Shown in pieces: positions 2,068 to 63,390 of a DNA stretch of 64,000 bases. The stretch covers positions 1-64,000 of the IMG/VR virus record IMGVR_UViG_3300032245_001322; one strand, written 5' to 3'. The notes beneath the pieces are model-generated. The model worked only from the letters and a program-made list of their open reading frames with translations. It was not told the DNA's origin and did not search any database. The position numbers were made by a program, and so were the translations under genes. This DNA comes from a virus. Within the stretch, counting starts at the first letter, position 1. Each line of letters opens with the position of its first letter.

Positions 2068-2097
2068 CAAATATAATATTATTTTATAAAATAACAA
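2068..2097 (-). promoter_or_regulatory. conserved phage promoter cassette (Bacteroidota-type -33/-7)
   Basis: Minus-strand read TTGTTATTTTATAAAATAATATTATATTTG; precedes tRNA-Met and the minus operon. Confidence 0.6.
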
Positions 2098-5781: not shown

Positions 5782-5811
5782 CAAATATAATATTATTTTA
5801 TAAAATAACAA
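5782..5811 (-). promoter_or_regulatory. conserved promoter cassette
   Basis: TTGTTATTTTATAAAATAATATTATATTTG on the minus strand. Confidence 0.6.
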
Positions 5812-7735: not shown

Positions 7736-7768
7736 GCAAATATAATATTATTTTGAAAAATAAAAACT
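7736..7768 (-). promoter_or_regulatory. conserved promoter cassette (variant -33)
   Basis: TTTTTATTTTTCAAAATAATATTATATTTG on the minus strand. Confidence 0.5.
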
Positions 7769-8639: not shown

Positions 8640-8669
8640 TTGTTATTTTTGAAAATAATTATATATTTG
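8640..8669 (+). promoter_or_regulatory. conserved promoter cassette
   Basis: TTGTTATTTTTGAAAATAATTATATATTTG. Confidence 0.55.
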
Positions 8670-8853: not shown

Positions 8854-9245
8854 TGTTTATTTTAAATATTCAAACATTTGCTTTGTGCGTATTGGCAACT
8901 TTGGTTTTTCTTTCTCTTTTTATTTTTTCTAAAAAGCCTTATGAAGAGAATATAGAAAATTATGAAGAAGTTGAAAATTTGCCGACTTATCACAAAGTAG
9001 AAAAGCCAACTTTACCAAATCCAACTTTACAAGAATTAAACATTGCCGAATCTTCAAAATTAGCAAAGGTTTACGAGATGTTAATTAGAGGTGATATTTT
9101 GACTGACGAAATAGTGTTTCGTGCATTGGGTAGTAAAAAGGCAAGTATTTTTATTTTTAGATTAAGGGAACGAGGTATGGTAATAGATACTTTGATTATG
9201 CCAAATGGCAAATCGGGGTATGCTTTTAGAAATTTTAAATTATGA
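8850..9245 (+). CDS. membrane-anchored protein (N-terminal TM)
   Basis: N-terminal hydrophobic helix then soluble domain. Confidence 0.5.
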   Translation: MMFILNIQTFALCVLATLVFLSLFIFSKKPYEENIENYEEVENLPTYHKVEKPTLPNPTLQELNIAESSKLAKVYEMLIRGDILTDEIVFRALGSKKASIFIFRLRERGMVIDTLIMPNGKSGYAFRNFKL

Positions 9246-9475
9246 CAACAAAAGATATTTCAATAAAAAAACAGACGAAGGTGTATGCATTGATTTTAAG
9301 TCGTGGATATAATCTTACGGAATTTATTAAGAGAGTTAAGGATACAACGGGTGTAAATATCGAGTTGTATAGAATGTCCAAAATTGCATCGGGATTAATC
9401 AGAAACTACAAAACTGATACTGCTCGTGCCATTGCAAATACCTTGGGTGTTCCTATTGATGATATTTTGGAATGA
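9242..9475 (+). CDS. XRE-type helix-turn-helix transcriptional regulator
   Basis: LTEFIKRVKDTTGVNIELYRMSKIASG...ARAIANTLGVPIDDIL resembles the Cro/C1 HTH. Confidence 0.55.
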   Translation: MTTKDISIKKQTKVYALILSRGYNLTEFIKRVKDTTGVNIELYRMSKIASGLIRNYKTDTARAIANTLGVPIDDILE

Positions 9476-15328: not shown

Positions 15329-15375
15329 TATATGAAAAGAGAAAATTGGACAGACACAAGAAAGGCGAATTTATC

Positions 15376-18024: not shown

Positions 18025-18733
18025 TGTACTTATAAGTGGAAAGTTGGGTGATTTAATTCATTCATTATACGTTTGCAAAGTTTTATTTAAGCATTTCAAT
18101 AAAAAGTCTGTTATCTACATGACCGATAGTGTAGAGCCGTTTGAAAATGGTTTAAAAAATACTTATATGGAGTTGTATGAGTTTATTAAAATGCAATCTT
18201 TTTGTGAAGATTTTAAAATTTGGAATGGTGAGCCAATAGAAGCCAATACCACTCTATTCAGACGCTCGAATTTGTTATATAAAAATTGTTGGAGAGAAAT
18301 TTTTAACGAAACATTCAATACTTCAATATTGACGGGGGCTTGGCTCGATTACCATAACCCCAAAATAAAACAAAATACTTTGGTTATTGCAAGACGTTAT
18401 AAAACACCGATGAGCGACAATACAAAAATTATTTATTTGAAGTATATCGAGCAATTTGAAAAGATTGTTTTTTTAGGTTCAAAACACGACTACGACCTTT
18501 TTGATTTAAAGCATTACTGCAAATTAGTAACGCCTTTAACTATTGACGATTGGCTCATAAATATCAAAACAAGTGGTTATTTTATTGGCAATCAAAGTAG
18601 CCCTTTAGCGATGGCTTTAGCATTAGATGTCAATGTTTTAGCAGAGTTGTTCCCAAGAACTATTATTGATTATATTCACTATGTAGGTGAAGAAAAATAT
18701 AGTCAAAAGTTCAATTATTTTTTGAATGAATAA
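18011..18733 (+). CDS. GT9-like glycosyltransferase (heptosyltransferase-like)
   Basis: C-terminal YFIGNQSSPLAMALALDVNVLAEL resembles the GT9 GNDSGPMHLAAAL motif. Track start 17960 is TTG; ATG at 18011. Confidence 0.45.
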   Translation: MEKVSVLISGKLGDLIHSLYVCKVLFKHFNKKSVIYMTDSVEPFENGLKNTYMELYEFIKMQSFCEDFKIWNGEPIEANTTLFRRSNLLYKNCWREIFNETFNTSILTGAWLDYHNPKIKQNTLVIARRYKTPMSDNTKIIYLKYIEQFEKIVFLGSKHDYDLFDLKHYCKLVTPLTIDDWLINIKTSGYFIGNQSSPLAMALALDVNVLAELFPRTIIDYIHYVGEEKYSQKFNYFLNE

Positions 18734-18766
18734 TATTATTCTCTATAATAAAATTATATTTGCACT

Positions 18767-21850: not shown

Positions 21851-22279
21851 CAGTTAACACAGATTAACTATTTGCAAGAATTACTTCTTGTAAATAATGT
21901 AAGCGAGTGCACCGATAATAATTAGGTTGTGAACGTTGTTACCACCTAAAAATTTGTCTGAATTGATATTTAAGAAATCTCCCATAGTGTTACAAATATA
22001 CTATTGGCAAAAGACTCAAAATTATGCATTGGAATATTTTAGAATTGCATATTTAGTAAGTTATTAGTATAGTTGAATATAAAATTCATGCACAAAATTA
22101 TCTTATTAAATTACATTTGTATTTTACACCAATTTTACAAAGTTTTTTCTAACTATTTTTATCAATTATTGAAAAATTATGTCAAAATGATTTAAAACGC
22201 ATTTTTTATTGACCTCAAATGCTTTGCAAATTCCTTGAAAATAGAATTTAATATCTTATTCTTATATTTGTAATGTATT

Positions 22280-31097: not shown

Positions 31098-31598
31098 ATG
31101 GACAAAATTATTAAAGTTCTCAAACAGAACAAATTAAAAGAAAGTATGCTAAGTCAAGAGATTCAAACTTCTATTGAAAATCTTGAAAATTTAATTGTAA
31201 AGCATAATGCTGAAGTTGATGAATTGGACAATTCAGAAGAAGTAACTGAAGAACAAGAAAATCATATTGAGCAACAATCTCAATTAATTGATTCAACGGA
31301 AGCAAGTATTGTTTCTGCAATTGAAACTTTTTTAGAAGCAAAAGCAGATGCTGAAGCAAAAGCAAAAGAAGAAGCAGAGCAAAAAGCAAAAGACGAAGCC
31401 GATAAAAAGGCAAAAGAAGATGCTGATTCAAAAGCGAAAGCAGACTCAGAAGCAAAAGAAGAAGCCGATAGAAAGGCTAAAGAAGAATTAAACAAACCTA
31501 AACCAAAAGAGAAAAAAAGTGGATTAGGAATGTTTTTGTTGGGTGCAGTAGTACTTATTGCAACGGCAGGGGTAGTTAATGTAATGAATAAAAAATAA
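31098..31598 (+). CDS. coiled-coil repeat protein (KAKEEAD repeats) with C-terminal TM anchor
   Basis: AEAKAKEEAEQKAKDEADKKAKEDADSKAKADSEAKEEADRKAKEE, then GMFLLGAVVLIATAGVV. Confidence 0.55.
   Translation: MDKIIKVLKQNKLKESMLSQEIQTSIENLENLIVKHNAEVDELDNSEEVTEEQENHIEQQSQLIDSTEASIVSAIETFLEAKADAEAKAKEEAEQKAKDEADKKAKEDADSKAKADSEAKEEADRKAKEELNKPKPKEKKSGLGMFLLGAVVLIATAGVVNVMNKK
31330..31480 (+). repeat. imperfect 21-24-nt coding repeats (GCAAAAG[A/C]AGA[A/T]GC[T/C]GA...)
   Basis: Encodes KAKEEAD-type repeats. Confidence 0.5.
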
Positions 31599-40448: not shown

Positions 40449-41054
40449 ATGAAAACTATAACAAAAGTAGCATTAGTAGTCGGTGGATTAATTATTGCAA
40501 ATAAATTATTGTCAAAGCCAAAAGGAACAACAACTGCAACCGAAGAAGGTGAAGAACCCACTTCGGGTGGTGGTGGAGGTGGTGGATTTCCAATAATTCC
40601 TGCTTTAGGAATACCAATTTTACCTTTAGGTATTCCGATTAGTAAAACAGAAGAACAAATAAAGGCTGAAGCAGATGCAAAAATTAAAGCAGAAGCCGAA
40701 GCAAAAGCAAAAGCCGTTTTGGATAGCGTTCAACAAAAAATAAAAGATATGCAAAAGGCAACTGCTACAACAACTGTGACTCCTGCTTCGGGCACTATTG
40801 GAGACCAATTAGGCATAGGAACAACTTCTGGAACTTCTACGGGAGCAACCACGGGAACTTCTACGGGAACAACTACGGGAACTTCTACGGGAACAACTAC
40901 GGGAACTTCTACGGGTGGTATCTTAGGAGGAACGGGTACAACAACAACTTCGGGGTCAACAGTAACTCGTATGGGTGCTCCAACTCCAATTGGAGGGGTA
41001 ATTCCTTTTGATGGAACAATTGAAACATTAAGACGAAAACCAAATTTTAGATAA
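40449..41054 (+). CDS. N-TM protein with KAEAEAKAKA coiled-coil and (GTSTGTTT)n repeats
   Basis: Tandem 24-nt repeats at 40823..40916 encode a Gly/Thr/Ser-rich segment. Confidence 0.55.
   Translation: MKTITKVALVVGGLIIANKLLSKPKGTTTATEEGEEPTSGGGGGGGFPIIPALGIPILPLGIPISKTEEQIKAEADAKIKAEAEAKAKAVLDSVQQKIKDMQKATATTTVTPASGTIGDQLGIGTTSGTSTGATTGTSTGTTTGTSTGTTTGTSTGGILGGTGTTTTSGSTVTRMGAPTPIGGVIPFDGTIETLRRKPNFR
40823..40916 (+). repeat. in-frame tandem 24-nt repeat (ACGGGAACTTCTACGGGAACAACT, about 3.5 copies)
   Basis: Direct reading; encodes (GTSTGTTT)n. Confidence 0.7.
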
Positions 41055-46924: not shown

Positions 46925-46938
46925 CATATTTTTGTAAT

Positions 46939-49225: not shown

Positions 49226-50023
49226 TTAATCGAAATCTACATCACCAAACATTGACTTTTCTTTTATATCAGTTGTTAATTTGGTTACAATTACATTATT
49301 TTCAGCATCTAAATCTAATAAGTTTCCACCCTCTAAAGCATTGTCAGTATTAACTGCTAACGTTCCCGAATAGTCTTTAGGTAAAAATTTAGCAAGTTGT
49401 TTTAATACAATCTTTTTGAGCATCCAATGATTTGAATCTTTAACATCGTTAAAATAAAAATCACTTTTTGTTTTTTGCATATTGATTGTAGCCAACAATT
49501 CACTTCGTGTCATCACTTTAAACGATTTTGTGCCATTTTTAAAGGTTGCTACACAATACACATGAGTTAGAGTAAATGCATTCCTAATAGGGTCTTCGGG
49601 AATATGTTTTAAAATTGGATTCAATCCTAATTCATACTCGAAAATATCACCTTCATGTACACTTTCACCACTAATAGAGATTATTTCACCACTTCTTAAT
49701 AAAATTGAGATTAATCCTTGGTATCCAATGATAGGATTTACATAGTAACCTTTTGCATCTGATTTTTCTACACTAAAATAAAACTGCCCAAGTTGACTAC
49801 TCGGCATTAACCCTAACTGAGCACATAATACGATAGAAGCAAACAAAGAAGTTGGATTTGTTTGAAATGCTATTTGCATATTGTACGATTTTTTTATTTC
49901 AGAGAGAATTAATTGCTTAAAAGTCGCTCCCGAAATATTATGATTTTTCAAAAGGTCATTGAATACCTTTTTTTCATAAGCATCTAACTGATTACTTAAC
50001 TCTAATATTAATTCATTGTCCAT
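49226..50023 (-). CDS. recT: RecT-family single-strand annealing protein
   Basis: QTNPTSLFASIVLCAQLGLMPSSQLGQFYFSV...IIGYQGLISILLRSG matches the RecT core. Confidence 0.65.
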   Translation of the reverse strand: MDNELILELSNQLDAYEKKVFNDLLKNHNISGATFKQLILSEIKKSYNMQIAFQTNPTSLFASIVLCAQLGLMPSSQLGQFYFSVEKSDAKGYYVNPIIGYQGLISILLRSGEIISISGESVHEGDIFEYELGLNPILKHIPEDPIRNAFTLTHVYCVATFKNGTKSFKVMTRSELLATINMQKTKSDFYFNDVKDSNHWMLKKIVLKQLAKFLPKDYSGTLAVNTDNALEGGNLLDLDAENNVIVTKLTTDIKEKSMFGDVDFD

Positions 50024-50198
50024 TGGTTAATATTTTAAGGGCTTCTTTTTTAGTTTTCATTTTTCTCAAATCTTCGGAAGTATATCCGAAAATTGTAAAT
50101 TCATTGTTTAATGAATCTATTTCTTTTTTTAATTGCTCTATGGCTTCTGATTGAACTTTTGTCTTTAAAAGTTCGTCAACTATTTGTTGTGCTTCCAT
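50013..50198 (-). CDS. hypothetical small coiled-coil protein
   Basis: Start trimmed to ATG at 50198. Confidence 0.4.
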   Translation of the reverse strand: MEAQQIVDELLKTKVQSEAIEQLKKEIDSLNNEFTIFGYTSEDLRKMKTKKEALKILTNGQ

Positions 50199-50971
50199 TA
50201 ATAGTAAATTGTTGTTATTGTTGGTAATAGTGCTCTTGATTCGCAATTTTCATTTATAGGGCAAGTTGAACATTTAAGTAAACTTGGTCTTGGTTTAAAG
50301 TTATTTGTTTCAACCATTTTTTGCCACATTTGTTTGGCTAATTTAATATCCTCAATGTGTTTTAAGGTTTTCATAGGGTCAACTTCTATTTTTGCCACTC
50401 TTACATCTGAAGGATTGGTGCTTGAAAATAAAAAGAAATAAAAATCTACAGGTTCTTGATACAAAGATTCAGCAATATATTTGTAGTGCACGGCTTGAAT
50501 CATCAATTGGTCTTTCTCGGTTAAAGTGTTAAAATCCCAACCTCTTTCATCCCACTTATTATCTAATAAACCCGAATATTTTAAATCTATAATGCATAGT
50601 CTACCATTCCATCTTGCTTTAATATCTAAAGTTCCTTTAGCATCGTTATACTCAATTGTTTCACCCGTGGACAAAACATCTATATCCATTTTTTGAATTA
50701 AAACTTTGCAATATAGGGCACTTTGATATGCACGTTGGTAAGGTTCTGATAATTTTTCTTTTGGTGTTCCCTCGGATACTTTTTTGGCTTTAGGTACATT
50801 TCCAAATTTAGGTAGTTGACCCGTTGCTATATATTCGAAATATTGACCTAATAACATTGCTTCGCTTTTAAATAAGTCTTTATTTTCTACATACATAGCC
50901 TTTAAAATCAGACCACATTCTTCCTTCAAAAAATACTTTTGAAGGGACTTCATTAAAGATTGACTAATCAT
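50198..50971 (-). CDS. Cas4-like PD-(D/E)xK exonuclease with four-Cys cluster
   Basis: D...IIDLKYS nuclease motif. One N-terminal Cys plus C-terminal C-x2-C-x5-C. Partner of RecT. Confidence 0.6.
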   Translation of the reverse strand: MISQSLMKSLQKYFLKEECGLILKAMYVENKDLFKSEAMLLGQYFEYIATGQLPKFGNVPKAKKVSEGTPKEKLSEPYQRAYQSALYCKVLIQKMDIDVLSTGETIEYNDAKGTLDIKARWNGRLCIIDLKYSGLLDNKWDERGWDFNTLTEKDQLMIQAVHYKYIAESLYQEPVDFYFFLFSSTNPSDVRVAKIEVDPMKTLKHIEDIKLAKQMWQKMVETNNFKPRPSLLKCSTCPINENCESRALLPTITTIYY

Positions 50972-50974
50972 AAT

Positions 50975-51340
50975 TTAAAAAGGTACATCGTCAATAGGTG
51001 CAAAAGGGTCATCAACTTTTGGTTGCTCTACAGGTTTTTCTTTAGCCCCTAAAAGTTGTATTTCATCAATTCTCATTTTTAGATAAGGTTTACCTTCGAA
51101 TAGAGTGGCATTCATTTCGCCACGAACATAAACTAAAGTTCCTTTAAGTAAATAATCTGCAATCTTGTGACTTGCATTGGGTTGTACCCAACGAGTTGCA
51201 CTTACCCAAGTTGTTATTTTATTTCCATCTTTGTCTTTTTTGTTTGACCCGATTGAAAATGTAATTGCACGGCTACCATCTTGCATGGTAGTTACTTTGG
51301 CATCTGCTCCTAAGTTGCCAATCATTGTTGTCATTATCAT
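50975..51340 (-). CDS. ssb: single-stranded DNA-binding protein
   Basis: OB-fold-like sequence with acidic C-terminal tail DDPFAPIDDVPF. Confidence 0.7.
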   Translation of the reverse strand: MIMTTMIGNLGADAKVTTMQDGSRAITFSIGSNKKDKDGNKITTWVSATRWVQPNASHKIADYLLKGTLVYVRGEMNATLFEGKPYLKMRIDEIQLLGAKEKPVEQPKVDDPFAPIDDVPF

Positions 51341-51573: not shown

Positions 51574-51714
51574 AAAATCCGTGTCAATAATAGATTAAGG
51601 GGTAATTAATTCTAAATTTTTAATAATTATTTTTGAAGCACATACATTTCGTTAGAAGTGTCGTGTTGTCCAATAAGGGTGGGTAAAGTCGCCAACTACT
51701 CCCACCCTTTTAAA

Positions 51715-52273: not shown

Positions 52274-52672
52274 TTATTTTTTAATTATAAATGGTTTTAA
52301 GTTTTTGTCTTTGCAATATCTTTCAAGTTCAATGAAAATTTGAATTGCCATCTCTCTATTTTTTGCTTTGGCTTTGTTCTTGAAAAACCAAAAAATGTTA
52401 CCTTCTTCATCTTGACAACCGAATTTGTATTTCCATAAATGTTTGCTAACATTCGCACGATAAGGTTGTAAAAATGTTAATTTTCGACCATCTTCAGCAA
52501 CGGAAATAAAACAAAAGAAGTAATCTTGGTAAACAAATTCTTCGCCACCTTTAAATAGTTCACGATTTACCTCGACAATATCTTTTGCTTTTCCCATAGC
52601 ATAGTAATCAAGGGTATCTTGGTCGATAAGTTCCTCGATTTTTGCTTCGTTTAATTCTAATGTAATACTCAT
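52274..52672 (-). CDS. hypothetical protein
   Basis: Track start 52690 is TTG; ATG at 52672. Confidence 0.45.
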   Translation of the reverse strand: MSITLELNEAKIEELIDQDTLDYYAMGKAKDIVEVNRELFKGGEEFVYQDYFFCFISVAEDGRKLTFLQPYRANVSKHLWKYKFGCQDEEGNIFWFFKNKAKAKNREMAIQIFIELERYCKDKNLKPFIIKK

Positions 52673-52735
52673 TTCGATACAAATATACAAAGTAATTTTA
52701 TTTTACAAAATAATATTGCAAATATTTTTAAAAAA

Positions 52736-53491
52736 TTATTGATTTTCTTCTTCCCAAATGATTTGACGATATGTAAAACCTTGTTCCGTAAGGTAATCGT
52801 ACACTTTTTTGCGATTTTCAACAGAATCTCTGTAGTATATGCAGTCGGTTCTATAGGCTTCAAAATCCTTACCTAAGATAACTGCAAGTTGACCCATGTG
52901 ATAGTAGCAACCATAACGGATTGCACGATACAAGTTTTTTAATTTTTCGTGGTGCTCTGTGGCTACAATGATTGGTTTTTCAATTCTTTGACCTTTCTCG
53001 TAAACATAGTATGCTTTGATTCGTCCTAAAACTGCAAGTGACGCTAACTTAGTTACTTTGTAATCTTTGTCGTTTCCTTTATGGTAGGTTTGCTCTGAGA
53101 TTATTCCCAATTTATACGCCATCGTCCAATATGCTGATTCAATATCAGTCCCCGTAATTTGACCATAAGAATTATCATAATCAATGTTTGTCACGTTCAC
53201 GGGTAATTTATTGCTAATCTCAAAATTGGGATTTTCTTGGGTAAATCTAATTGCATCCCTTTTCACTGCTGAAAATATCCAAAGTTGTTTCGGTGGGAAC
53301 GTATATTCCTTATCTTTACTCGGATAAATAGTTTCTAAACCATCGTGAATAATCGAAGTATAATACTTCGTTTTTCGAATTACAAAATTTTGTTTTCGAT
53401 TTACAAGTGTATCAAGTAACGCTTGGTCTTTGCCAATTGGCTTGAATACACGCTCGACGACTTCGGGGCTATCTGCGAATTCGGGTTTCAT
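52736..53491 (-). CDS. hypothetical protein
   Basis: First gene after the conserved promoter at 53496..53526. Confidence 0.55.
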   Translation of the reverse strand: MKPEFADSPEVVERVFKPIGKDQALLDTLVNRKQNFVIRKTKYYTSIIHDGLETIYPSKDKEYTFPPKQLWIFSAVKRDAIRFTQENPNFEISNKLPVNVTNIDYDNSYGQITGTDIESAYWTMAYKLGIISEQTYHKGNDKDYKVTKLASLAVLGRIKAYYVYEKGQRIEKPIIVATEHHEKLKNLYRAIRYGCYYHMGQLAVILGKDFEAYRTDCIYYRDSVENRKKVYDYLTEQGFTYRQIIWEEENQ

Positions 53492-53495: not shown

Positions 53496-53526
53496 CAAAT
53501 ATAATATTATTTTTGAAAATAACTAC
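53496..53526 (-). promoter_or_regulatory. conserved promoter cassette
   Basis: AGTTATTTTCAAAAATAATATTATATTTG on the minus strand. Confidence 0.55.
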
Positions 53527-54536: not shown

Positions 54537-54630
54537 AATTGTGTTTAAGGGGTGACGAAATTACAATAATCAATTTTTAAAAAAAAATTTTTGTTAAAAA
54601 AATGTGTCAAGCCCTTTGTTTATATGGTGT

Positions 54631-54834: not shown

Positions 54835-55043
54835 ATTTGCATTCGATTTGTGAACTCATCTAATTAGGATTGTGTTTAATAAGGGGTGACTTGGGGAGGT
54901 TGCCCCTTTTTTTCTTCCAACAAATGTGTGAATTTTCCGATTTTTTTCTTATAATATTTGGTGAATGGATAGTTTTTTTAGTAAAAATTCATATAATGTA
55001 TATTTTTGATTAAATTTGCTTAGAATAAATAACATAAAATATT

Positions 55044-55317: not shown

Positions 55318-57609
55318 ATGTTAGTCAACATTATAGGTAATAGCATTTCGTCTAATGCTCAAGCATCGGGCTCTATAACTTATGAACCATTTGTTTTTCA
55401 AGTAACAGTTACAAATGGTCAAACGATAACTTTGCCTTATTATGTTGATGGTGAATATACGGGAAATATAGATTGGGGAGATGGAAATACAAGCGTAAAT
55501 AGTTATGCAAATAGGCAACACACTTATTCCATAGGTTCAAAATATACAATTAGAATACAAGGAAGAGTAAAAAAATTTTCTTTCGTTTCGTTAACGGCAT
55601 CAGAAAGATTATATATCAATGAAATAGTTTCGTGGGGCGATTTTGAGCCAAGTTCTGTTGGAAGTACTTTTATTGGATGTACAAATTTGGATTGTAGAAC
55701 TACAACTGATTATTTAAAAATAAAATCAGATACGAACTTAACCTCTTTTTTTCAAGATTGCAATCAAACAATTTTTACTTCAATTAATAATTTAACATTG
55801 TGGGATTTAAACAATTTAGTTTTATACAAAACATTGTCAAAAATGTTTTTAAATTGTTTATATTTTAATCAAAGCATAAATTCTTGGGATGTATCAAATA
55901 TTACAAATATGTCATATTTATTTGCATCAACTATTGCAGGTTATCATTCATTTAATCAAAGTTTAAGCAATTGGAATGTTTCAAATGTTACTGACATGAG
56001 TTTCATGTTCACGGCAAGTTCTTTTAATCAACCTTTAAGCACATGGAATGTTTCAAATGTTACTACGATGCAATCAATGTTTCAAGCATCAAATGCATTT
56101 TCGCAAAATTTAAGTAATTGGAATGTTTCCAATGTTACAACATTCCAAGAAATGTTTGCACTAAGTGTATTTAATTCAGCAATAAATTGGACTATGGGTG
56201 GTAACTCAACTATAAATGTTAGTTTATACTTGATGTTTAGTGAAAATATAAACTTTAATCAACCAATAAATTCTTGGAATACTTCAAGAGTTACTAATTT
56301 AAACAATACATTTGGTAGAACTTTAAATTTTAATCAAGCATTAAATTTGTGGAATACATCCTTGGTTACTGATATGAATGGGACTTTTCGAGGTACAAGT
56401 GCAGTAAATAAATCAATTTTCAATCAAGATATTAGTTCATGGAATACATCAAATGTTTTGGATATGACACAAATGTTTGATTATAGCAATTTTAACAATG
56501 GTGGTGCAAGTTTAAATAGTTGGAATACTTCAAAAGTAACATCAATGTCAACAATGTTTAGAAATACTCCATTTAATCAAAATATTACTTCTTGGAATAC
56601 ATCAAATGTTACTACGATGCAACGTATGTTTCTCAATGCAACTTCATTTAATCAAAATGTTGGTGGGTGGGATGTATCAAAAGTTACAACGATGTCAGAA
56701 ATGTTTAGTGGAGCAAGTGCATTCAATAACGCAAGTAATTCATCAATAGGTTCTTGGAATGTTGGGTTAGTTACCAATATGTCTTCTATGTTTTCAAGTA
56801 GTCCTTTTAATCAAAACATAGGGTCTTGGAATACATCAAATGTTACTACAATGGCTTCAATGTTTGCAACGGCAACTTCATTTAATCAAAATATTGGTGG
56901 GTGGGATACATCAAAAGTTACGACAATGGCTTCAATGTTTAATGGGGCAACAGCATTCAATAACGCAAGTAATTCATCAATAGGTTCTTGGAATGTTGGG
57001 TTAGTTACGACAATTCAAACAATGTTTAGGAGTTCTGCATTTAATCAACCTATTGGAAGTTGGAATGTTTTAAACGTGACTAATATGAATGGTACATTTC
57101 AAACAAATACTGCATTCAATCAAAGTTTAAGTTCTTGGAATGTAGGGAAAGTTACTACATTCCAAAATTGTTTTAGTGGAGCAACTGCTTTTAATCAAAA
57201 TATTGGTTCATGGAATGTTTCTTCTTGTACCATTTTTTCTAATATGTTTACGTCTGCAACATCCTTCAATAATGGTGGGTCAAATACAATAAATAATTGG
57301 TCATTAAATACTTCTACATCAATAACGATAGCAATGCAATCTATGTTTCAAAGTGCAACTGCTTTTAATCAACCAATTAATAATTGGGTAATATCAAGAG
57401 TTAATAATTTTACCAATTTTATGGCAAATAAAACTAACTTAAATTATTCAGCATCTAATCTTGACGCTATTTATAACACTTGGTCAACAATATCAAGAAT
57501 AGCATCATTATCAATTAGTTTCGGGACAATAAAATATACTGCTGGGGGTTCGGCAGGAAGGGCTATATTAGTGGCAACACCATGGACAATAACTGACGGA
57601 GGAATATAA
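55318..57609 (+). CDS. DUF285 (BspA-like) repeat protein, candidate receptor-binding/adhesin
   Basis: About 20 repeats of FNQ-I--WNVSNVT-M--MF; intragenic near-identical duplications. Confidence 0.65.
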   Translation: MLVNIIGNSISSNAQASGSITYEPFVFQVTVTNGQTITLPYYVDGEYTGNIDWGDGNTSVNSYANRQHTYSIGSKYTIRIQGRVKKFSFVSLTASERLYINEIVSWGDFEPSSVGSTFIGCTNLDCRTTTDYLKIKSDTNLTSFFQDCNQTIFTSINNLTLWDLNNLVLYKTLSKMFLNCLYFNQSINSWDVSNITNMSYLFASTIAGYHSFNQSLSNWNVSNVTDMSFMFTASSFNQPLSTWNVSNVTTMQSMFQASNAFSQNLSNWNVSNVTTFQEMFALSVFNSAINWTMGGNSTINVSLYLMFSENINFNQPINSWNTSRVTNLNNTFGRTLNFNQALNLWNTSLVTDMNGTFRGTSAVNKSIFNQDISSWNTSNVLDMTQMFDYSNFNNGGASLNSWNTSKVTSMSTMFRNTPFNQNITSWNTSNVTTMQRMFLNATSFNQNVGGWDVSKVTTMSEMFSGASAFNNASNSSIGSWNVGLVTNMSSMFSSSPFNQNIGSWNTSNVTTMASMFATATSFNQNIGGWDTSKVTTMASMFNGATAFNNASNSSIGSWNVGLVTTIQTMFRSSAFNQPIGSWNVLNVTNMNGTFQTNTAFNQSLSSWNVGKVTTFQNCFSGATAFNQNIGSWNVSSCTIFSNMFTSATSFNNGGSNTINNWSLNTSTSITIAMQSMFQSATAFNQPINNWVISRVNNFTNFMANKTNLNYSASNLDAIYNTWSTISRIASLSISFGTIKYTAGGSAGRAILVATPWTITDGGI
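56630..57045 (+). repeat. intragenic near-identical direct duplication (~180 nt units about 235 nt apart) in the DUF285 gene
   Basis: GCATTCAATAACGCAAGTAATTCATCAATAGGTTCTTGGAATGTTGGGTTAGTTAC at ~56718 and ~56953. TTTAATCAAAATATTGGTGGGTGGGAT at ~56646 and ~56883. Confidence 0.65.
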
Positions 57610-57611: not shown

Positions 57612-57971
57612 ATGCAAGAAATAAATTATCCAAGTGAATTAACATATTTTATTGCTTATGTCGATGAAAATATTTTTTGTTACGGCATTGTTGAACCACA
57701 ACAATGTATGGCAACAGGCGAACCTAATCTTTATCAAACAACAAATTATTATGATTGGATTGAGGAATTAAAAAAATTTCATGTTTTTCAAGGTTACTAT
57801 TTTAACAACATTGAAGAAGCACAAAATGCTAAAAATTCTATTGAAGAATTTTATGGAACAAACATTAGAACTTTAGGGGATTCAATCAATAATGGCAATG
57901 TATTTTATTATATATTAGGCAATTATGTTGATATTTTAGGAGAAAGCACTTTGCTAAAAATACCTTTATAA
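57612..57971 (+). CDS. hypothetical protein
   Basis: ORF. Confidence 0.5.
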   Translation: MQEINYPSELTYFIAYVDENIFCYGIVEPQQCMATGEPNLYQTTNYYDWIEELKKFHVFQGYYFNNIEEAQNAKNSIEEFYGTNIRTLGDSINNGNVFYYILGNYVDILGESTLLKIPL

Positions 57972-57972
57972 A

Positions 57973-58020
57973 AATTATTTTTGAAAATATTTGTTTGTTT
58001 GTAAAATAATATTACATTTG
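57973..58020 (+). promoter_or_regulatory. conserved promoter cassette with upstream palindrome
   Basis: AAATTATTTTTGAAAATA ... TTGTTTGTTTGTAAAATAATATTACATTTG. Confidence 0.55.
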
Positions 58021-58043
58021 TAGTGAACAAAAGAACAAAACAA

Positions 58044-58451
58044 ATGGAAAACAAAAATTCAAACGAAACAAATTTTACTGAATTAGTTAACAACTTTTTG
58101 CAGATTACCGAATTTGAGTTATTAGAACTCTCTACTATTGAAGAACATGGAAAATTAACTATTGACTATGTTGGCTTGTGTGCTTTCAAAATGGTTAAGT
58201 TAGAGTTGGTGATTAAAGAAGTAGAAAATGTTATAATTTCCAAAATAGAAAAAACTCATGGTCAATTAGGAGTTAAAAAAATGAGACAAATTTTATTTAT
58301 GGAATTAGTTTCTTGGTTAGATAAATATGGTAAAAGAATTGTACATGATGCAATTCTAAAAAATGAAGAAGATGTAAACCAAGAAGAATTAAAGATTGAA
58401 CTTGCTTTTATGAAAAGTGCTTACGAGTTATTTGAAAAAATAGAGAGATGA
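58044..58451 (+). CDS. hypothetical protein
   Basis: Track start 58023 is GTG; ATG at 58044, downstream of the conserved promoter. Confidence 0.5.
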   Translation: MENKNSNETNFTELVNNFLQITEFELLELSTIEEHGKLTIDYVGLCAFKMVKLELVIKEVENVIISKIEKTHGQLGVKKMRQILFMELVSWLDKYGKRIVHDAILKNEEDVNQEELKIELAFMKSAYELFEKIER

Positions 58452-58813
58452 AATTAATTGATGGTAAATTTTACAAAAATGGCGAAGAAGTGCCATTGGA
58501 GATAGGTAATTGGGAACAAATTAATTTACTTAAAGAAAAGGCAAAACAATTAGAAAAGGGTACTAAAGTTGATGTTATAATAAAAAGCACTTATACATTG
58601 AGTGTTGAATTTGAATGTCCCCTTTGTTGTAAAGTAAATACAATAGAAGATGCAGAAGAATATGAAGATTTCGAACCCGATGATGAAGATGTGGAATCAT
58701 TGTGTAGTGCTGAGATTTGCCAATGTGATTATTGTTTAGGCGATATAAAACTAAAAGTTGAAAATTCGGATGAGAGATTTAGGAGTAAAAAATTCTTCGT
58801 AAAACCTGCTTAA
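58448..58813 (+). CDS. zinc-ribbon-like protein
   Basis: CPLCC...CSAEICQCDYC; followed by a strong terminator. Confidence 0.5.
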   Translation: MKLIDGKFYKNGEEVPLEIGNWEQINLLKEKAKQLEKGTKVDVIIKSTYTLSVEFECPLCCKVNTIEDAEEYEDFEPDDEDVESLCSAEICQCDYCLGDIKLKVENSDERFRSKKFFVKPA

Positions 58814-58816
58814 AAC

Positions 58817-58842
58817 GTGCCCCTTTTTGGGGCTTTTTTTTT
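58817..58842 (+). terminator. rho-independent terminator
   Basis: GCCCCTTTTTGGGGC then T9. Confidence 0.7.
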
Positions 58843-58872
58843 GTACAGAATTAATTATATATTTGTATTATT

Positions 58873-59679
58873 ATGGCAAGTGTAAATATAGTTAACGATT
58901 TAGGGCAAAATATTACGGCAGATGTGAAATACAATCCTATCGTAAATGGTCGTGCACTTGACCCTCAAAGAATCGTTGACACTTTAAATAAATATTATCC
59001 AACTATATTAACTGCATACGAAAGTCAAGATGCATATTTAAACAAACCAATTTTTGTTGGAATAAGAATGAAGTCTTGTGGTATTTCGGGCGTTAAAGGT
59101 GGTGTTGTTGCAGATGACATTTTTGTTATGTTAAGAAGACAAACAAGCCCACTTCATGCATTTTTTACAAATTGGACGATTGAATATTATCCGATAACAA
59201 CTGACCCGACTTCGGCTTTTAGAGAGAAAGGAATTCAAAACAAAAAGAAAACGGGTTATCTAATTGCTCGAAATTGGTCTCCTACAGAACAAATCCCCGA
59301 ATTTTGTGGTCACTATTTATATAGAGTAGGTAACTATATGAATAGCAACGCTTTTATTTGTAGAACTGAGCAAAATGTTTGGCAATTTGATATTGTTGCC
59401 GAAGGCAAACAACAAATACCCGTTGGTATGACTGCTGATGCCTATGCAAAACAAATTGGGTTAAAACCAACAAGATACCAAGCAGGAATGTTTATTCATC
59501 GCTCTTGGGGTGATTTGATGTTTATGGATTCGGCAGGTTGCCAAGTTTTTAAAGACAATAATGATTTAAGTAGAGTTTTCAATATTGCTTGGGCTTGGGA
59601 ATCTAAAATGAGGTCTAAAAACAAAAAGTATAAAGGCTTTTTTGATTATGTATTAGTTGATGGGGAGATGGTGTTATGA
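58873..59679 (+). CDS. YkuD-like (L,D-transpeptidase fold) protein, paralog of the lysin catalytic domain
   Basis: FIHRSWGDLMFMDSAGCQVFKD parallels HRGGLGSFIDNWSAGCHVTKD of 2290..2916. ATG 7 nt after TATATTTG. Confidence 0.5.
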   Translation: MASVNIVNDLGQNITADVKYNPIVNGRALDPQRIVDTLNKYYPTILTAYESQDAYLNKPIFVGIRMKSCGISGVKGGVVADDIFVMLRRQTSPLHAFFTNWTIEYYPITTDPTSAFREKGIQNKKKTGYLIARNWSPTEQIPEFCGHYLYRVGNYMNSNAFICRTEQNVWQFDIVAEGKQQIPVGMTADAYAKQIGLKPTRYQAGMFIHRSWGDLMFMDSAGCQVFKDNNDLSRVFNIAWAWESKMRSKNKKYKGFFDYVLVDGEMVL

Positions 59680-59918
59680 TGATAAAAAATAAAGGTGTAT
59701 TGTTATTCTCATTAGGATTTTTATCAGTCTTTTTAGGTACTTACGTTTATTTCTATATTGATAGAAATAGAACTGCTGAATTTACAGATGAAAAAGCAGA
59801 AGTTGAAGAATTATTGAGACAATTTTTAGTGATGAAAGGTTTGCAAGATAATGCAACCAATAGAATAAAATATTCGCAAATGACAAAGGAAGACTTAGAG
59901 AAAGCCCTTGGTTATTAA
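59676..59918 (+). CDS. small N-TM protein
   Basis: ATGA overlap; followed by a terminator. Confidence 0.5.
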   Translation: MMIKNKGVLLFSLGFLSVFLGTYVYFYIDRNRTAEFTDEKAEVEELLRQFLVMKGLQDNATNRIKYSQMTKEDLEKALGY

Positions 59919-59938
59919 TATTTCGTTCTTATTTAGTT

Positions 59939-59972
59939 AGCCCTTATTTGAGAAAATAGGGGCTTTTTTTTT
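59939..59972 (+). terminator. rho-independent terminator
   Basis: AGCCCTTATTTGAGAAAATAGGGGCT then T10. Confidence 0.65.
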
Positions 59973-59999
59973 GGATAAATAATTGACTTATATTTGTAT

Positions 60000-60581
60000 A
60001 TGCCAATATCAAAATCACTAAGCGAAGATATTACCTCTCCAATAGGAAATAGCCTTGCTATATTTAAAGAAGATGATTCAGACCTTTTAATGTTAAAAGA
60101 CATCTATGGTAATAACGAACCTTTAAATAATTATTTGAATTATCAAGGTAGTTTTTACGATACAACGACTCAAACAAGTTTAGGTAGCGAAATTAAAATT
60201 TTGACATTTAATTCTACATTTATTTCCAATGGAATAAGCCTTATTAACAATAGTCAATTAAAAGTATCTCAAAAAGGAATTTACAATTTGCAATTTTCTG
60301 CTCAATTAACTAAAACTTCGGGTGCAAGTTTAGAAATCGCTTATATTTGGTTTAGAAAAAATGGTCAAGATATACCGAATTCAGCGAGTACAATTTCTAT
60401 TCAAGCAAATAATAATACAAGGTTAGTTCCTTCGTGGAATTTTTTCGCTGATATGAATAAAAATGATTATTTAGAAATAGTTTGGTACAGTACAGATGTA
60501 CATATCGTATTTTTAGCAGTTGCTGAAAGTGTAAATATACCTGCCATTCCAAGTGTTATAGTTACAATGTCAAGAGTGTAA
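60000..60581 (+). CDS. C1q/TNF-like domain protein (candidate fibre/receptor-binding)
   Basis: KGIYNLQFSAQL...WFRKNGQDI...NDYLEIVWYS matches the C1q jelly-roll pattern G-Y-F-F ... NG ... D-V-V. Track start is TTG; ATG at 60000. Confidence 0.4.
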   Translation: MPISKSLSEDITSPIGNSLAIFKEDDSDLLMLKDIYGNNEPLNNYLNYQGSFYDTTTQTSLGSEIKILTFNSTFISNGISLINNSQLKVSQKGIYNLQFSAQLTKTSGASLEIAYIWFRKNGQDIPNSASTISIQANNNTRLVPSWNFFADMNKNDYLEIVWYSTDVHIVFLAVAESVNIPAIPSVIVTMSRV

Positions 60582-60594
60582 CTATATTTGTATT

Positions 60595-61101
60595 ATGTTA
60601 AATTTAAAGGACGACAAAACAAAATTTGCCATTGGTATTATTGGTGTAATTGCCTTTTTTTTATTTAAAAGAAAAATGTCCACAACTTATACGGAAAGCA
60701 ATTGGAAAAATGATTTAGTAAATCCAATAAGAGGGAAAGTCGCTTCGGGATTTGGTGGTAGAATTAATCCAATAACAAAAGTGTGGGGCTTTCATAACGG
60801 AGTAGATATAGGAGCACCTCGTGATACACCTATTTTAGCACCTTTAAATGGAGTAGTTTCAGCAAAATACACAAGTAGTGCAGGTGGAAATCAATTAATA
60901 ATTGATTCGGGATACCCTAAATTTGGATTTGCTCATTTGAATAAATATGCCGAAAACATTGAAGTAGGCTCTGTAGTTAATCGTGGCGAAATAATTGGAT
61001 ATGTAGGAACAACGGGTATGTCAACGGGCAATCATTTACATTTTACCTTGCGTCTAAATAATCAACCAACAGACCCTGCAAAACATTTTTCGTTTAAATG
61101 A
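60595..61101 (+). CDS. M23 family peptidase with N-terminal TM
   Basis: HNGVDIGAP...GTTGMSTGNHLHF is the classic M23/LytM motif. Confidence 0.8.
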   Translation: MLNLKDDKTKFAIGIIGVIAFFLFKRKMSTTYTESNWKNDLVNPIRGKVASGFGGRINPITKVWGFHNGVDIGAPRDTPILAPLNGVVSAKYTSSAGGNQLIIDSGYPKFGFAHLNKYAENIEVGSVVNRGEIIGYVGTTGMSTGNHLHFTLRLNNQPTDPAKHFSFK

Positions 61102-61490
61102 TGGAAACGGCAAAAAAGAAAAATCCTAAACTTTGGGAATCAATTGTGGCATCTGTAAAAAGAGGTGACAAAGGTGGTAAAAAAGGCGAGTGGAGTGCAC
61201 GAAAAGCCCAATTAGCCGTCAAAATGTATAAGGATAAAGGGGGTGAATATATTGGGGCAAAAAGCAAAAGCAATTCACTTGTAAAATGGACTAAACAAGA
61301 TTGGACTACAAAAAGTGGAAAACCATCTTTGGAAACGGGCGAAAGATATTTACCTAAGAAAGCAATCAAATCTTTAACCCCAAAAGAATATAAAGAGACT
61401 TCATTGGCAAAAAAGAAAAGTCTTAAAAAAGGCGAACAATTTTCTAAGCAACCAACCAAAATAGCAAAAAAGGTTTCTAAATTCAGATAA
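61098..61490 (+). CDS. hypothetical basic Lys/Gly-rich protein
   Basis: ATGA overlap; KGGKKGEWSARKAQ. Confidence 0.5.
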   Translation: MMETAKKKNPKLWESIVASVKRGDKGGKKGEWSARKAQLAVKMYKDKGGEYIGAKSKSNSLVKWTKQDWTTKSGKPSLETGERYLPKKAIKSLTPKEYKETSLAKKKSLKKGEQFSKQPTKIAKKVSKFR

Positions 61491-61705
61491 TGGCAAAAAC
61501 AAAAGAAATAAGCATATCAGTTAATAATTGGTACGCAATATATGACCCTAACAAGGGCTTTACTCAATTTGGAATAGCACAAAGTTTAGTTAAGGATGTA
61601 GTTCTATTTAAAATGAAGAATGGAAACATGGAAAGGTATGAGCATAAATATTGCACAAAAGTCTATGAGAACAATCTTTTATTTCAATTAAACGAAACTT
61701 CTTGA
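61490..61705 (+). CDS. hypothetical small protein
   Basis: ORF followed by a terminator. Confidence 0.45.
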   Translation: MAKTKEISISVNNWYAIYDPNKGFTQFGIAQSLVKDVVLFKMKNGNMERYEHKYCTKVYENNLLFQLNETS

Positions 61706-61774
61706 GGTTTATTGGAAAATAATATTATATTTGTATTGCTTTTCATTTGAGCAATTTGTTCTTTAATTAATGGA

Positions 61775-61806
61775 GGGGTTAGAAGAAATTTTAACCCCTT
61801 TTTTAT
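61775..61806 (+). terminator. rho-independent terminator
   Basis: GGGGTTAGAAGAAATTTTAACCCC then T-run. Confidence 0.65.
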
Positions 61807-61812
61807 TTTTGT

Positions 61813-61842
61813 TTGTTATTTTCAAAAATAATATTACATTTG
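61813..61842 (+). promoter_or_regulatory. conserved promoter cassette
   Basis: TTGTTATTTTCAAAAATAATATTACATTTG; 19-nt spacer. Confidence 0.6.
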
Positions 61843-61846
61843 TCAT

Positions 61847-62122
61847 ATGAAACAATACACAAAAATTTACATGGATTATTTTGGGTATGATACTTCAGAC
61901 TTTATTTGTTGTGAAGTATGTGGAAATCAAGGGGTCGATACGCATCATATTGAAGCACGTTCTATGGGTGGCACGAAGAAAAAAGATGAAATTTTCAATT
62001 TAATGTGTTTATGTCGTCATTGCCACGTCAAATATGGCGATAAGAAACAATACAAAGATTTTTTAAAAAATACACATTTAGAATTTATGTCCAAAATGGG
62101 AGGTAACAATGGAACTAAATAA
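61847..62122 (+). CDS. small HNH nuclease
   Basis: CEVCGNQGVDTHHIEARSMGG...CRHCHVKY. Confidence 0.55.
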   Translation: MKQYTKIYMDYFGYDTSDFICCEVCGNQGVDTHHIEARSMGGTKKKDEIFNLMCLCRHCHVKYGDKKQYKDFLKNTHLEFMSKMGGNNGTK

Positions 62123-62513
62123 ACCAAAAGAAATTCGCCACAAAGTAGATAGTAGTGGCAACATCCTTCGTGCCTATTGGTACGGAGATGTAAGTAGAAT
62201 CACTCTCTCACTTGCAAAAGAAAAACGTGAGCGTGAGATTGGTGTAATTAATCATGCTAAAAGAAGATTTGAAATTAGACGTGACCCCAAGCGTCACCTA
62301 TTTTTAAAATTCAATGCTTATGGAATGAATCACTCTTTGTTAAATGACCAATTATTTGATAGCGTTTTAATCGAAGATGGTAAAAACACTTGGAACGTGC
62401 CAAATGATTGGATAATAAACAATGGCAAGTTCTTAAACTTTAAAAACAATGGTGGTTTTGAACTTCAAGTATTCATTCCTTTGGATGCAATTACCCAATT
62501 TAAAGTAAATTGA
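62109..62513 (+). CDS. hypothetical protein
   Basis: ORF. Confidence 0.5.
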   Translation: MELNKPKEIRHKVDSSGNILRAYWYGDVSRITLSLAKEKREREIGVINHAKRRFEIRRDPKRHLFLKFNAYGMNHSLLNDQLFDSVLIEDGKNTWNVPNDWIINNGKFLNFKNNGGFELQVFIPLDAITQFKVN

Positions 62514-62533
62514 AAAATATTTTTTTACTTTAC

Positions 62534-62563
62534 TTGTTATTTTGAAAAATAATATTACATTTG
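62534..62563 (+). promoter_or_regulatory. conserved promoter cassette
   Basis: TTGTTATTTTGAAAAATAATATTACATTTG; 19-nt spacer. Confidence 0.6.
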
Positions 62564-62579: not shown

Positions 62580-62825
62580 ATGGAAGGCAAAAACGAAAAA
62601 ACACAATTGAGCACTCGATGGCTCGTTGAGAAATTATTTGAAGAGGGATTTTTGGTGAAAACTCCCGAAAACATCAAATCGCTAAGATTGATTATCAAAG
62701 AAGCAACCGAAATGGAAAAGATGAAAATCATTGACTCGCACATTGTTGCTTATGAGGAAATGGGTTTCCCGTATTCTGCAAAAGATTCAGCAGTTACATA
62801 TTATAAAGAAATTTACGGAAAATGA
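62580..62825 (+). CDS. hypothetical protein
   Basis: Downstream of the conserved promoter; a tiny 14-codon uORF at 62565 precedes it. Confidence 0.5.
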   Translation: MEGKNEKTQLSTRWLVEKLFEEGFLVKTPENIKSLRLIIKEATEMEKMKIIDSHIVAYEEMGFPYSAKDSAVTYYKEIYGK

Positions 62826-63184
62826 GAATGGCAAAAGCCCCCCAAGAGCACATTGATAAATTGCGTGTGTGGATGCAATTTAACGATGAATTATGCGAAA
62901 TCGACCCAACTTATGAGTTAGAGTGGAAGAAATTTAAAAAAGATTGGGAAGAAGATGAAAGATTTGTTCCTATAATAAAACATTGTGAGGATGATAACGG
63001 ATTTAATTGGGAATATTATTGGGATTATTATCGTAGTAATATATCACACATACACATGAGAATTTTAATGGGGTATGATGTTTTAGTCGATAATGTGTGC
63101 GACCCCGATTTGGACTATTTAGATTATAAACCCGAACTAAAAAAACAATTTGAATTTTACGAAAAAAACGCAAACGAAAAATGA
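62822..63184 (+). CDS. hypothetical protein
   Basis: ORF. Confidence 0.5.
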   Translation: MRMAKAPQEHIDKLRVWMQFNDELCEIDPTYELEWKKFKKDWEEDERFVPIIKHCEDDNGFNWEYYWDYYRSNISHIHMRILMGYDVLVDNVCDPDLDYLDYKPELKKQFEFYEKNANEK

Positions 63185-63390
63185 GAAAGTTTTTATTATC
63201 AATTGGTATTATTCAAACTCGCAAAGAGACAACAAATCATGGTACTTTTACATATAAAAGGTTAAATCCGTTTAATCCTTTAACTTATGTATTGATTGTT
63301 TTAACATTCATTATTGGAACTTTGATGTTTGGGTTTGTGGGGGTGTGGAAAGAAATAAATTTAGATGAGTTAAAATTCAAATGGAAATAA
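63181..63390 (+). CDS. small TM protein
   Basis: Hydrophobic segment. Confidence 0.45.
   Translation: MRKFLLSIGIIQTRKETTNHGTFTYKRLNPFNPLTYVLIVLTFIIGTLMFGFVGVWKEINLDELKFKWK

Follow-up and report, generated by a model that had tools for sequence, protein, structure and literature searches.

A repeated sigma-A-type promoter cassette with an embedded palindrome, a putative operator, in the genome of an uncultured phage

Promoters recognised by the primary sigma factor of Bacteroidota (sigma-ABfr) combine a -33 TTTG with a -7 TAnnTTTG box, as described for Flavobacterium johnsoniae (PMC6847099) and in a map of transcription start sites of Flavobacterium psychrophilum (PMC9723704). In F. johnsoniae the -7 element covers positions -12 to -5, transcription starts 4-5 nt downstream of it, and AT-rich motifs at -18 and -28 stand out more than the weak -33 box (PMC6847099); the literature calls the -33 box dispensable. 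For phages, extended tripartite middle promoters read by the host RNA polymerase have been reported in the crAss-like Cellulophaga phage phi14:2 (bioRxiv 10.1101/2020.03.07.982082), and promoter-early stem-loops (PeSLs) have been described in T4-type phages (PMC2839356, PMC4122927). Promoters and regulators of Bacteroidota-infecting phages are barely characterised. Here we describe a 30-nt promoter cassette that is repeated along 64,000 nt of the IMG/VR virus record IMGVR_UViG_3300032245_001322 (positions 1 to 64,000, in the following the window), a segment of a freshwater phage genome with ~30% GC. We propose that the cassette is an early promoter for the host sigma-A, combined with an operator for a Cro-like helix-turn-helix (HTH) repressor of the phage that would shut down the early gene class, a reading to which we assign a probability of roughly 0.6. 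The circuit as such is an ordinary and familiar phage design, placed in a little-studied, uncharacterised group of probable Bacteroidota phages.

The cassette is represented by the 30-mer TTGTTATTTT-NN-AAAATAATATTAYATTTG (as a single pattern, TTGTTATTTTNNAAAATAATATTAYATTTG). In a preliminary description of the window it had been typed as a 29-nt pattern with one central N, which yields a single weak match at ≤3 mismatches; the centre consists of two bases, and the copies themselves are real. With the corrected 30-mer all eight positions listed there are recovered with 0-3 mismatches, and 100 shuffles give 0 matches. At ≤3 mismatches the matches in the window are exactly those at 2068, 5782, 7737 and 53496 on the minus strand and at 8640, 57991, 61813 and 62534 on the plus strand (Table 1). 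A search for the right half of the cassette, AAATAATATTAYATTTG, gives 9 exact matches in the window, the additional one being at 61717 on the plus strand (the half cassette 61704-61733); a weak one lies at 18746. The palindrome said to be embedded in the spacer is there, in the form TTATTTT-NN-AAAATAA and not with the single central N. A weak copy suspected near 11298 exists as well (TTG at 11282, TATTTTTG at 11304-11311); it stands out for its perfect palindrome (11303-11318), which overlaps the -7 box.

All nine copies end in TAYATTTG, an exact Bacteroidota -7 box (TAnnTTTG/TAHHTTTG). The spacing of 19 nt between TTG and TAYATTTG is as originally stated; at this distance a -33 TTG is present in six of the nine copies and is replaced by TTT (7737), TAG (53496) or GAG (61704) in the others, and cassettes in related phages often carry TTT at -33. 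Every copy is intergenic and co-directional with the next gene or with the tRNA-Met. Intrinsic-terminator hairpins are located directly upstream of three copies (2068, 5782 and 61813), the other copies being without one. The similarity among several copies reaches ~45 nt and then includes a T-rich tract. An A-tract/T-tract element, AAATATTTTTT, and variants of it are found ~20 nt upstream of other cassettes (8619-8630, 62515-62527, 7769-7785 on the minus strand, 57970-57983), and where a terminator precedes the cassette, its T-run occupies the place of this tract. We take the AAATATTTTTT tract to resemble the distal subsite of the Escherichia coli UP element. The cassette at 7737 diverges from a plus-strand TATGTTTG promoter at 7788-7795, and the gene behind the 53496 cassette (52736-53491) is the first of a block whose last members are the SSB, exonuclease and RecT genes.

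Table 1. Cassette copies, separately located palindromes and associated genes in the window.
Feature	Position	Strand	Context
Cassette, 1 mismatch	2068..2097	-	67 nt upstream of tRNA-Met (1929-2000); terminator hairpin 2109-2139(-) precedes
Cassette, 1 mismatch	5782..5811	-	heads operon 5767->2290; terminator 5834-5848(-) precedes
Cassette, TTT for TTG at -33	7737..7766	-	heads operon 7718->5839
Cassette, 3 mismatches, palindrome intact	8640..8669	+	heads operon with HTH gene and Phg_2220_C replication-type gene
Degenerate cassette, TTATTCT-CT-ATAATAA-AAT-TATATTTG	18733..18762	+	-7 box G 4 nt before ATG 18767
Cassette, TAG for TTG	53496..53525	-	-7 box G 4 nt before ATG of 52736-53491
Cassette with degenerate inner left arm	57991..58020	+	displaced palindrome TTATTTTTGAAAATAT at 57975-57990
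Half cassette, right half only, no palindrome	61704..61733	+	exact right-half match
Perfect cassette	61813..61842	+	directly after terminator 61772-61801; -7 box G 4 nt before ATG of HNH gene 61847-62122
Perfect cassette	62534..62563	+	heads 62580-63390
Perfect palindrome TTATTTTTGAAAATAA	11303..11318	+	overlaps -7 box TATTTTTG (11304-11311) of glycosyltransferase gene 11326-11997
Palindrome TTATTTTGTAAAATAA	52698-52713	-	10 nt (not 3) upstream of -7 box TATATTTG (52680-52687), gene 52274-52672
Palindrome TTATTTTTGAAAATAT	57975-57990	+	directly upstream of 57991 cassette with degenerate inner left arm
77-aa candidate Cro/C1-type HTH regulator	9242..9475	+	immediately upstream of Phg_2220_C gene (9472-10065)
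RecT, PD-(D/E)XK exonuclease and SSB genes	49226..51340	-	single-strand-annealing machinery

From these sequence features we consider with high confidence that the cassette acts as a host sigma-A promoter of Bacteroidota type. The type had been suggested before and is supported by the exact -7 box, by the intergenic and sense placement, and by the upstream regions of genes in general: a sense TAHHTTTG lies ≤60 nt upstream of 16 of the 33 genes with an upstream gap of ≥25 nt (antisense 2; mean of shuffles 1.3). The eight further genes for which TAnnTTTG had been reported all carry it just upstream. Over the whole window TAnnTTTG is not enriched (133 found, 123 expected), nor are sites of the sigma-70 type. 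A Shine-Dalgarno core precedes 13 of the 114 genes in the window, A is found at -3 in 71%, and no G enrichment is seen at -12 to -7; the translation signals of F. johnsoniae are of the same type, with few Shine-Dalgarno cores and A at -3 (PMC6847099). The Bacteroidota host named in the preliminary description thus receives indirect support from the -7 boxes upstream of genes, the rarity of Shine-Dalgarno cores and the A at -3, and we regard a host within the Bacteroidota as probable, the support being indirect. A cultured relative was found neither by nucleotide search against known phages nor by a search with the terminase-like protein. Two further routes to the host were tried and rejected. 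The full cassette has one match in bacterial genomes, on a metagenome-assembled contig of Chitinophagaceae whose gene content is unrelated, and is uninformative; and the nearest homologues of the GDP-mannose dehydratase are other phage contigs, named bacterial ones among the top 120 being ≤41% identical.

Alternatively, the cassette could be the promoter of an RNA polymerase or sigma factor encoded by the phage itself, in the style of T7, N4 or crAss-like phages. Near-identical promoters of ~25 nt are typical of phage polymerases, and the open reading frame (ORF) 22280-24640 has a faint nucleotide match to crAss-like 'RNAP-associated' proteins. This match, however, falls in an ORF with an ART-PolyVal domain, and the cassette ends in a perfect host-type -7 box. 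Moreover, no RNA polymerase or sigma domain was detected in the ~70 proteins scanned, the three largest ORFs included, and the early promoters of the virion polymerase of the crAss-like phi14:2 share no motif. We consider a dedicated phage polymerase extremely improbable.

Relatives of the window were found by pattern scans of freshwater-lake metagenomes. They comprise R1 (a 61.6-kb contig, 72-92% nucleotide identity), several partial contigs, and the more divergent L212 (~68% nucleotide identity). Over ten orthologous site comparisons, the 28 fixed positions of the cassette show 5 changes in 280 (1.8%), the flanks (30 nt on each side) 109 in 600 (18%; cassette versus flanks, Fisher p = 3e-14), and the two central NN bases 9 in 20 (45%). 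Positions 13-30 have not changed in any comparison. The cassette is therefore under strong and sharply bounded selection. A generic preference of sigma-A for a fixed spacer fails to explain this invariance, because the mapped promoters of F. psychrophilum have no fixed extension: TATATTTG is found there 103 times and AATATTATATTTG once (PMC9723704 supplement), and the idea is rejected for this species.

The right-half 18-mer is found in more than 100 other AT-rich viral contigs, none of which has the left arm, and a sense ORF starts within ≤45 nt of 45 of 108 such matches (antisense control, 8). For example, the unrelated 78-kb viral contig L102 (IMGVR_UViG_3300025647_000026) contains, within 218-2938, three exact copies of AAAATAATATTATATTTG with no left arm, each followed after 4-5 nt by the start codon ATG of a tail-fibre-like gene; the right half is therefore a more general promoter core. 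Some other metagenome matches to the cassette are probably due to chance, such as those in L202/L204 at an Agenet-like ORF of eukaryote type (read from sequence).

The palindrome, in turn, occurs as an element of its own. When TTATTTT-NN-AAAATAA is searched on its own with ≤1 mismatch, the window yields 10 sites where 0.56 are expected. Each is at a promoter-like position, none lies between 11318 and 52698, and all are outside the 19-49 kb block of likely virion and packaging genes. Seven occupy the canonical position in the cassette (~-31 to -16), and three are found at other offsets from the -7 box; the latter are conserved in relatives, L212 included. The site over the -7 box of the glycosyltransferase gene has no other cassette sequence around it, and the same arrangement is found at the orthologue in L223 and, with 1 mismatch, in L225 and L218. 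The palindrome at 52698 is kept in L203, L207 and the ~68%-identical L212, and its 10-nt placement recurs in L218 and L225. At 57991 the window and L203 have an intact upstream dyad and a degenerate inner one, and L207 shows the reverse, a pattern that reads as compensatory turnover of neighbouring dyads.

The same holds at greater distance. Three distant syntenic lineages were reached via homologues of the GDP-mannose dehydratase and a fourth via a profile of the HTH protein. In these four (34-38% GC loci) TATTTT-NN-AAAATA occurs 1-2 times per 11-21 kb, compared to 0.01-0.02 expected, at the same three placements, that in the glycosyltransferase promoter included, and the rest of the 30-mer is not conserved. 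The suggestion that the palindrome is an operator has gained from both results, the conserved palindromes at other positions and the promoter enrichment in four distant lineages that lack the remainder of the cassette. An RNA hairpin was rejected as an explanation: the palindrome folds weakly (-2.4 kcal/mol, z between -0.65 and -1.28), and a DNA-protein site is therefore the natural reading of the dyad.

The candidate for the DNA-binding protein is the product of 9242-9475, whose gene sits in the operon behind the 8640 cassette. The gene that directly precedes the Phg_2220_C gene encodes, in each of the five lineages, a protein of 67-77 aa, and it is part of an operon that the palindrome would control. 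The orthologues in the four other lineages carry the PF13443 HTH_26 domain (Cro/C1 type; E = 2.5e-7 in L218) and are 48-57% identical to the protein of the window, with Y43, R44, S46, K47, I48 and G51 invariant, a stretch that we take, by analogy, to be the recognition helix of an XRE-family HTH. The choice of this gene as HTH candidate in the preliminary description is strengthened by the domain in its positional orthologues and by the shared invariant stretch. Direct homologue searches with the protein returned close relatives only, and its top fold matches are all XRE-type DNA-binding or HTH domains, none of them significant. Half-site centres spaced 9 bp apart in the dyad would suit an HTH dimer, and a site that falls inside the -33/-7 interval, or that covers the -7 box and the start, would suit repression by occlusion. 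The dyads might instead be bound by the replication-type Phg_2220_C protein (9472-10065), the gene of which is adjacent and equally conserved, or by a host nucleoid protein, for which AT-rich dyads are common targets. Yet the sites are single and dispersed at promoters, not clustered like the iterons of an origin, and the 16-bp dimension and the half-site spacing fit an HTH dimer. We judge binding by either of these proteins highly improbable.

The proposed circuit would thus superimpose two elements. The first would be a strong promoter for the Bacteroidota-type primary sigma factor of the host, with the -7 TAYATTTG and often a -33 TTG, from which transcription is predicted to start 4-5 nt after the final G of TAYATTTG. 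The second would be the 16-bp dyad TTATTTT-NN-AAAATAA, filling most of the spacer (~-31 to -16), as the operator of a phage Cro/C1-type HTH dimer, most likely the 77-aa product of 9242-9475. As the HTH gene would itself be driven by one cassette, the accumulating protein would occupy the operators and block RNA polymerase at ~ten promoters, and the early class would be switched off along with the synthesis of the repressor. This class would comprise the tRNA-Met, small ORFans, and the genes for replication, sugar modification and recombination. A -7 box without the dyad is seen in the promoters ahead of the gene for the ART-PolyVal protein (likely virion), of the peptidase M23 gene and of others like them. 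Judged solely by gene content, the dyad promoters would belong to one temporal class; initiation, binding, repression and timing we infer from the sequence.

A number of observations weigh against this proposal. A dyad of 7+7 A/T-only positions within a 22-nt AT-rich stretch is by itself only mildly improbable, with P = 0.02-0.14 under different nulls. The right arm is constant and the left arm is degenerate at 57991 and missing at 61704, no compensatory changes from arm to arm are seen in the dyad, and both arms fall on the positions of the AT-rich motifs reported at -28 and -18 for F. johnsoniae. As to the regulator, the HTH protein of the window has no Pfam match when searched alone, and its single-sequence AlphaFold2 (AF2) model is of low confidence (predicted local distance difference test, pLDDT, 59.5; five helices). 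The invariant protein stretch and the half-site are both unchanged across lineages, which is co-conservation and not covariation; the protein is linked to the dyad by position and plausibility only, and repression rather than activation is read from the position of the site.

The cassette could accordingly be only a very strong host sigma-A promoter, its T/A-rich blocks being -28/-18 sub-elements or UP-like sequence, with no dedicated regulator; the dyad symmetry would then be a by-product, and the copies would be alike through selection for strength and gene conversion. Consistent with this are the -18/-28 AT-rich motifs of F. johnsoniae, stronger there than the -33 box, the modest significance of the dyad as a single sequence, the better conservation of the right arm, and the promoter-like behaviour of the right-half 18-mer in other phages (the 45 of 108 matches, versus 8 antisense). 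The explanation fits poorly with a dyad that is conserved at three offsets, including over the -7 box and at ~-50 to -35, and that persists in distant lineages without the surrounding promoter sequence. Nor does it agree with the apparent turnover of neighbouring dyads at 57991 or with mapped F. psychrophilum promoters that show no fixed extension. On balance we find it unlikely that promoter strength is the whole explanation.

A further aspect of the cassettes is their association with rearrangements. In place of the two cassettes and the 7737 operon of the window, R4 (L215) has a single cassette. In R1 the upstream flank of the 7737 type is joined to the downstream flank of the 5782 type, with window 2955-7704 replaced, and a full cassette together with ~1.5 kb of extra DNA is found near the junction corresponding to window 11.1-11.3 kb. 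The HNH and 62109 genes are located behind different cassettes in L208 and L215. The modules at 58.4-60.6 kb, which are bounded by a terminator and plain TATATTTG promoters, are reordered among relatives. The RecT, exonuclease and SSB proteins could recombine cassette repeats of 30-45 nt. As part of the promoter-operator proposal we therefore suggest that the near-identical copies, several of them joined to a terminator, would serve as homology patches for the gain, loss and movement of modules, plausibly through the phage's own RecT/exonuclease/SSB, and that recombination is a plausible secondary property of the cassettes. Against this part it must be counted that many indel breakpoints are not at cassettes, that intergenic breakpoints are expected anyway, and that the breakpoints were assessed without a proper null model.

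Only tentatively, and with more doubt than confidence, do we extend this to cassettes as portable plug-in units, composed of terminator, UP-like tract, sigma-A promoter and operator and exchanged by phage RecT-type recombination. If this were true, a newly acquired gene would land under the early programme and its Cro-like shut-off, and the cassettes would be a Bacteroidota-phage counterpart of PeSLs with an operator added. It is also conceivable that the repeats are mainly recombinational, PeSL-like promoter-terminator cassettes whose identity is kept for modular shuffling, with a repressor being incidental or absent. The combination of terminator and promoter at 2068, 5782 and 61813, the cassette-linked rearrangements in R4 (L215), R1 and L208, and the presence of RecT, exonuclease and SSB genes speak for it. 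However, whole-gene indels always break in intergenic DNA, which is where promoters are located too, and many breakpoints are away from cassettes. The free central NN inside an otherwise invariant unit would be unexplained, as would the isolated dyad kept in lineages of ~50% protein identity. We consider a mainly recombinational role quite improbable; it is compatible with an early promoter carrying an operator and does not exclude it.

We note that three ends of two contigs fall inside cassette copies, namely both ends of R1 (L001 2-28, L003 11-37) and L224 at position 2. Assemblies are therefore interrupted at these repeats, and a contig with identical ends could wrongly be taken for circular. 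In the 61.6-kb R1 the equivalent of window 62.6-64 kb plus 1-1.9 kb seems to be missing, and ~3 kb of the phage genome appear to be outside the window.

Several other promoter features were recorded. At least six genes have the G of a -7 box exactly 4 nt before the ATG (2921-2928 and 53496-53503 on the minus strand; 18755-18762, 46927-46934, 60583-60590 and 61835-61842), so that the predicted transcripts would be leaderless; in F. psychrophilum leaderless mRNAs are only ~5% (PMC9723704). A spacing of 4-5 nt is likewise found before the three tail-fibre-like genes of the unrelated L102. A second promoter type, TATATTTGTA(T/A), has no dyad and no clear -33 (58858-58865, 59989-59996, 60583-60590, 22263-22270). 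It frequently follows a terminator directly, and the genes behind it include those for the ART-PolyVal protein (likely virion) and the peptidase M23; these sites may be late promoters. As a candidate second class CACCCCTTA was rejected, with 7 copies found and 7.7 expected, one copy being the arm of a terminator-like hairpin. A motif (T/C)ACCCCTTA is found upstream of three minus-strand genes (54546-54554, 54880-54888 and 51596-51604) without statistical enrichment, and one copy is an arm of a terminator-like hairpin between divergent genes.

The gene content of the window falls into several blocks. The first 7.8 kb are a minus-strand block of small ORFans and two tRNAs, which are also the only Rfam matches in the window. 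The plus-strand block that follows begins with the Phg_2220_C replication-type module and continues with a sugar-modification cluster (11326-21786, plus strand) of glycosyltransferases, a GDP-mannose 4,6-dehydratase, an FkbM-type methyltransferase and a C-methyltransferase. This cluster is syntenic in all lineages examined and may serve the modification of DNA or of surface glycans. The block at 22-49 kb is mostly without family matches; we take it to hold virion and packaging genes because of an ART-PolyVal protein and weak transglycosylase and terminase matches. It is followed by the minus-strand SSB/PD-(D/E)XK exonuclease/RecT block and by plus-strand small genes with a peptidase M23 and an HNH endonuclease. 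The ART-PolyVal domain is in a 786-aa protein (22280-24640, plus strand) that is conserved in distant lineages. ART-PolyVal domains are the ADP-ribosyltransferases of polyvalent proteins, which are packaged in the virion. As pure speculation by analogy with T4 Alt, the protein could modify the host RNA polymerase as the early promoters fire.

The gene at 55318-57609 (plus strand) encodes a 763-aa protein of ~25-aa FNQxIxxWNxSxVT repeats (63-234-nt DNA repeats). It is not present in close relatives, its nearest matches are in very diverse viral contigs, giant-virus bins included, and it was probably acquired recently, as a surface or adhesin-like gene. As a marker for relatives it was discarded, as it returned unrelated loci, again including giant-virus bins. 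HNH endonuclease genes are found at 11888-12601 and 61847-62122, both on the plus strand. The former is missing from R1, where a clean 23-nt junction is left, and the latter changes its position, and its order relative to the neighbouring gene, in L208 and L215. The half cassette is followed by ~65 nt without an ORF (61734-61812, plus strand) that form two hairpins and a T-run, the second hairpin being the terminator. The segment folds at -23.3 kcal/mol (z = -4.2) and is conserved in L206 and L207; one stem pair of the terminator is lost on both strands together among relatives. We regard it as a candidate small RNA; half cassette and hairpins together span 61704-61806. Two coding tandem repeats are located at 31315-31511, where the units are 24 nt long and Lys/Ala/Glu-rich, and at 40818-40937, where the protein 40449-41054 has Gly-Thr-(Ser/Thr) units of 12 nt.

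The locus is a compact and testable candidate regulon, with ~ten near-identical, predicted strong promoters, a 16-bp putative operator and a 77-aa candidate repressor conserved in five freshwater phage lineages. If the proposal is true, it would provide a ready pair of strong promoter and repressor for genetic tools in Flavobacteriia and Chitinophagia, and early genes as well as the host phylum would be predictable from sequence in uncultured phages.

Compared to known systems, the cassettes share with sigma-ABfr promoters a perfect -7 TAYATTTG with no G at the n positions, an AT-rich spacer and a start codon close by, and six of the nine window copies have a TTG at 19 nt upstream. In contrast to the host promoters, whose spacer is not fixed, 14 spacer positions here form an invariant dyad, and the -33 TTG is lacking in three of the nine window copies and in many relatives. 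The middle promoters of phi14:2 belong to a phage of a Bacteroidota host, as the cassettes probably do, have a multi-block motif conserved beyond the two host boxes, and are also found upstream of tRNA genes; that phage is unrelated, a virion RNA polymerase was not seen among the window proteins scanned here, and the two are likened by the description of the motif only. The cassettes recall PeSLs in that a repeated, predicted strong early promoter is joined, in some copies, to a terminator hairpin among small, non-conserved genes, and in that close relatives have gained, lost or relocated modules at several of the repeats. They differ in promoter type and phage group, in having the hairpin at only three of nine copies, and in the embedded dyad. 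Protein scans of the window revealed no T4-like genes and its promoters are not sigma-70-like; the likeness to PeSLs is one of analogy, not of membership.

The circuits of Cro and CI (lambda, 434, P22, TP901-1), together with the C-proteins and their C-boxes, are the remaining comparison. These systems have clustered OL/OR sets, unlike the ~ten dispersed single operators proposed here, and the host transcription machinery in the present case is predicted to be of Bacteroidota type. No integrase or CI-like partner was seen among the ~70 window proteins scanned, and the circuit may therefore be a purely lytic early shut-off. In common are a small XRE-family HTH protein, a dyad of 14-18 bp at several promoters that overlaps the polymerase site, and a regulator gene located behind its own putative operator.

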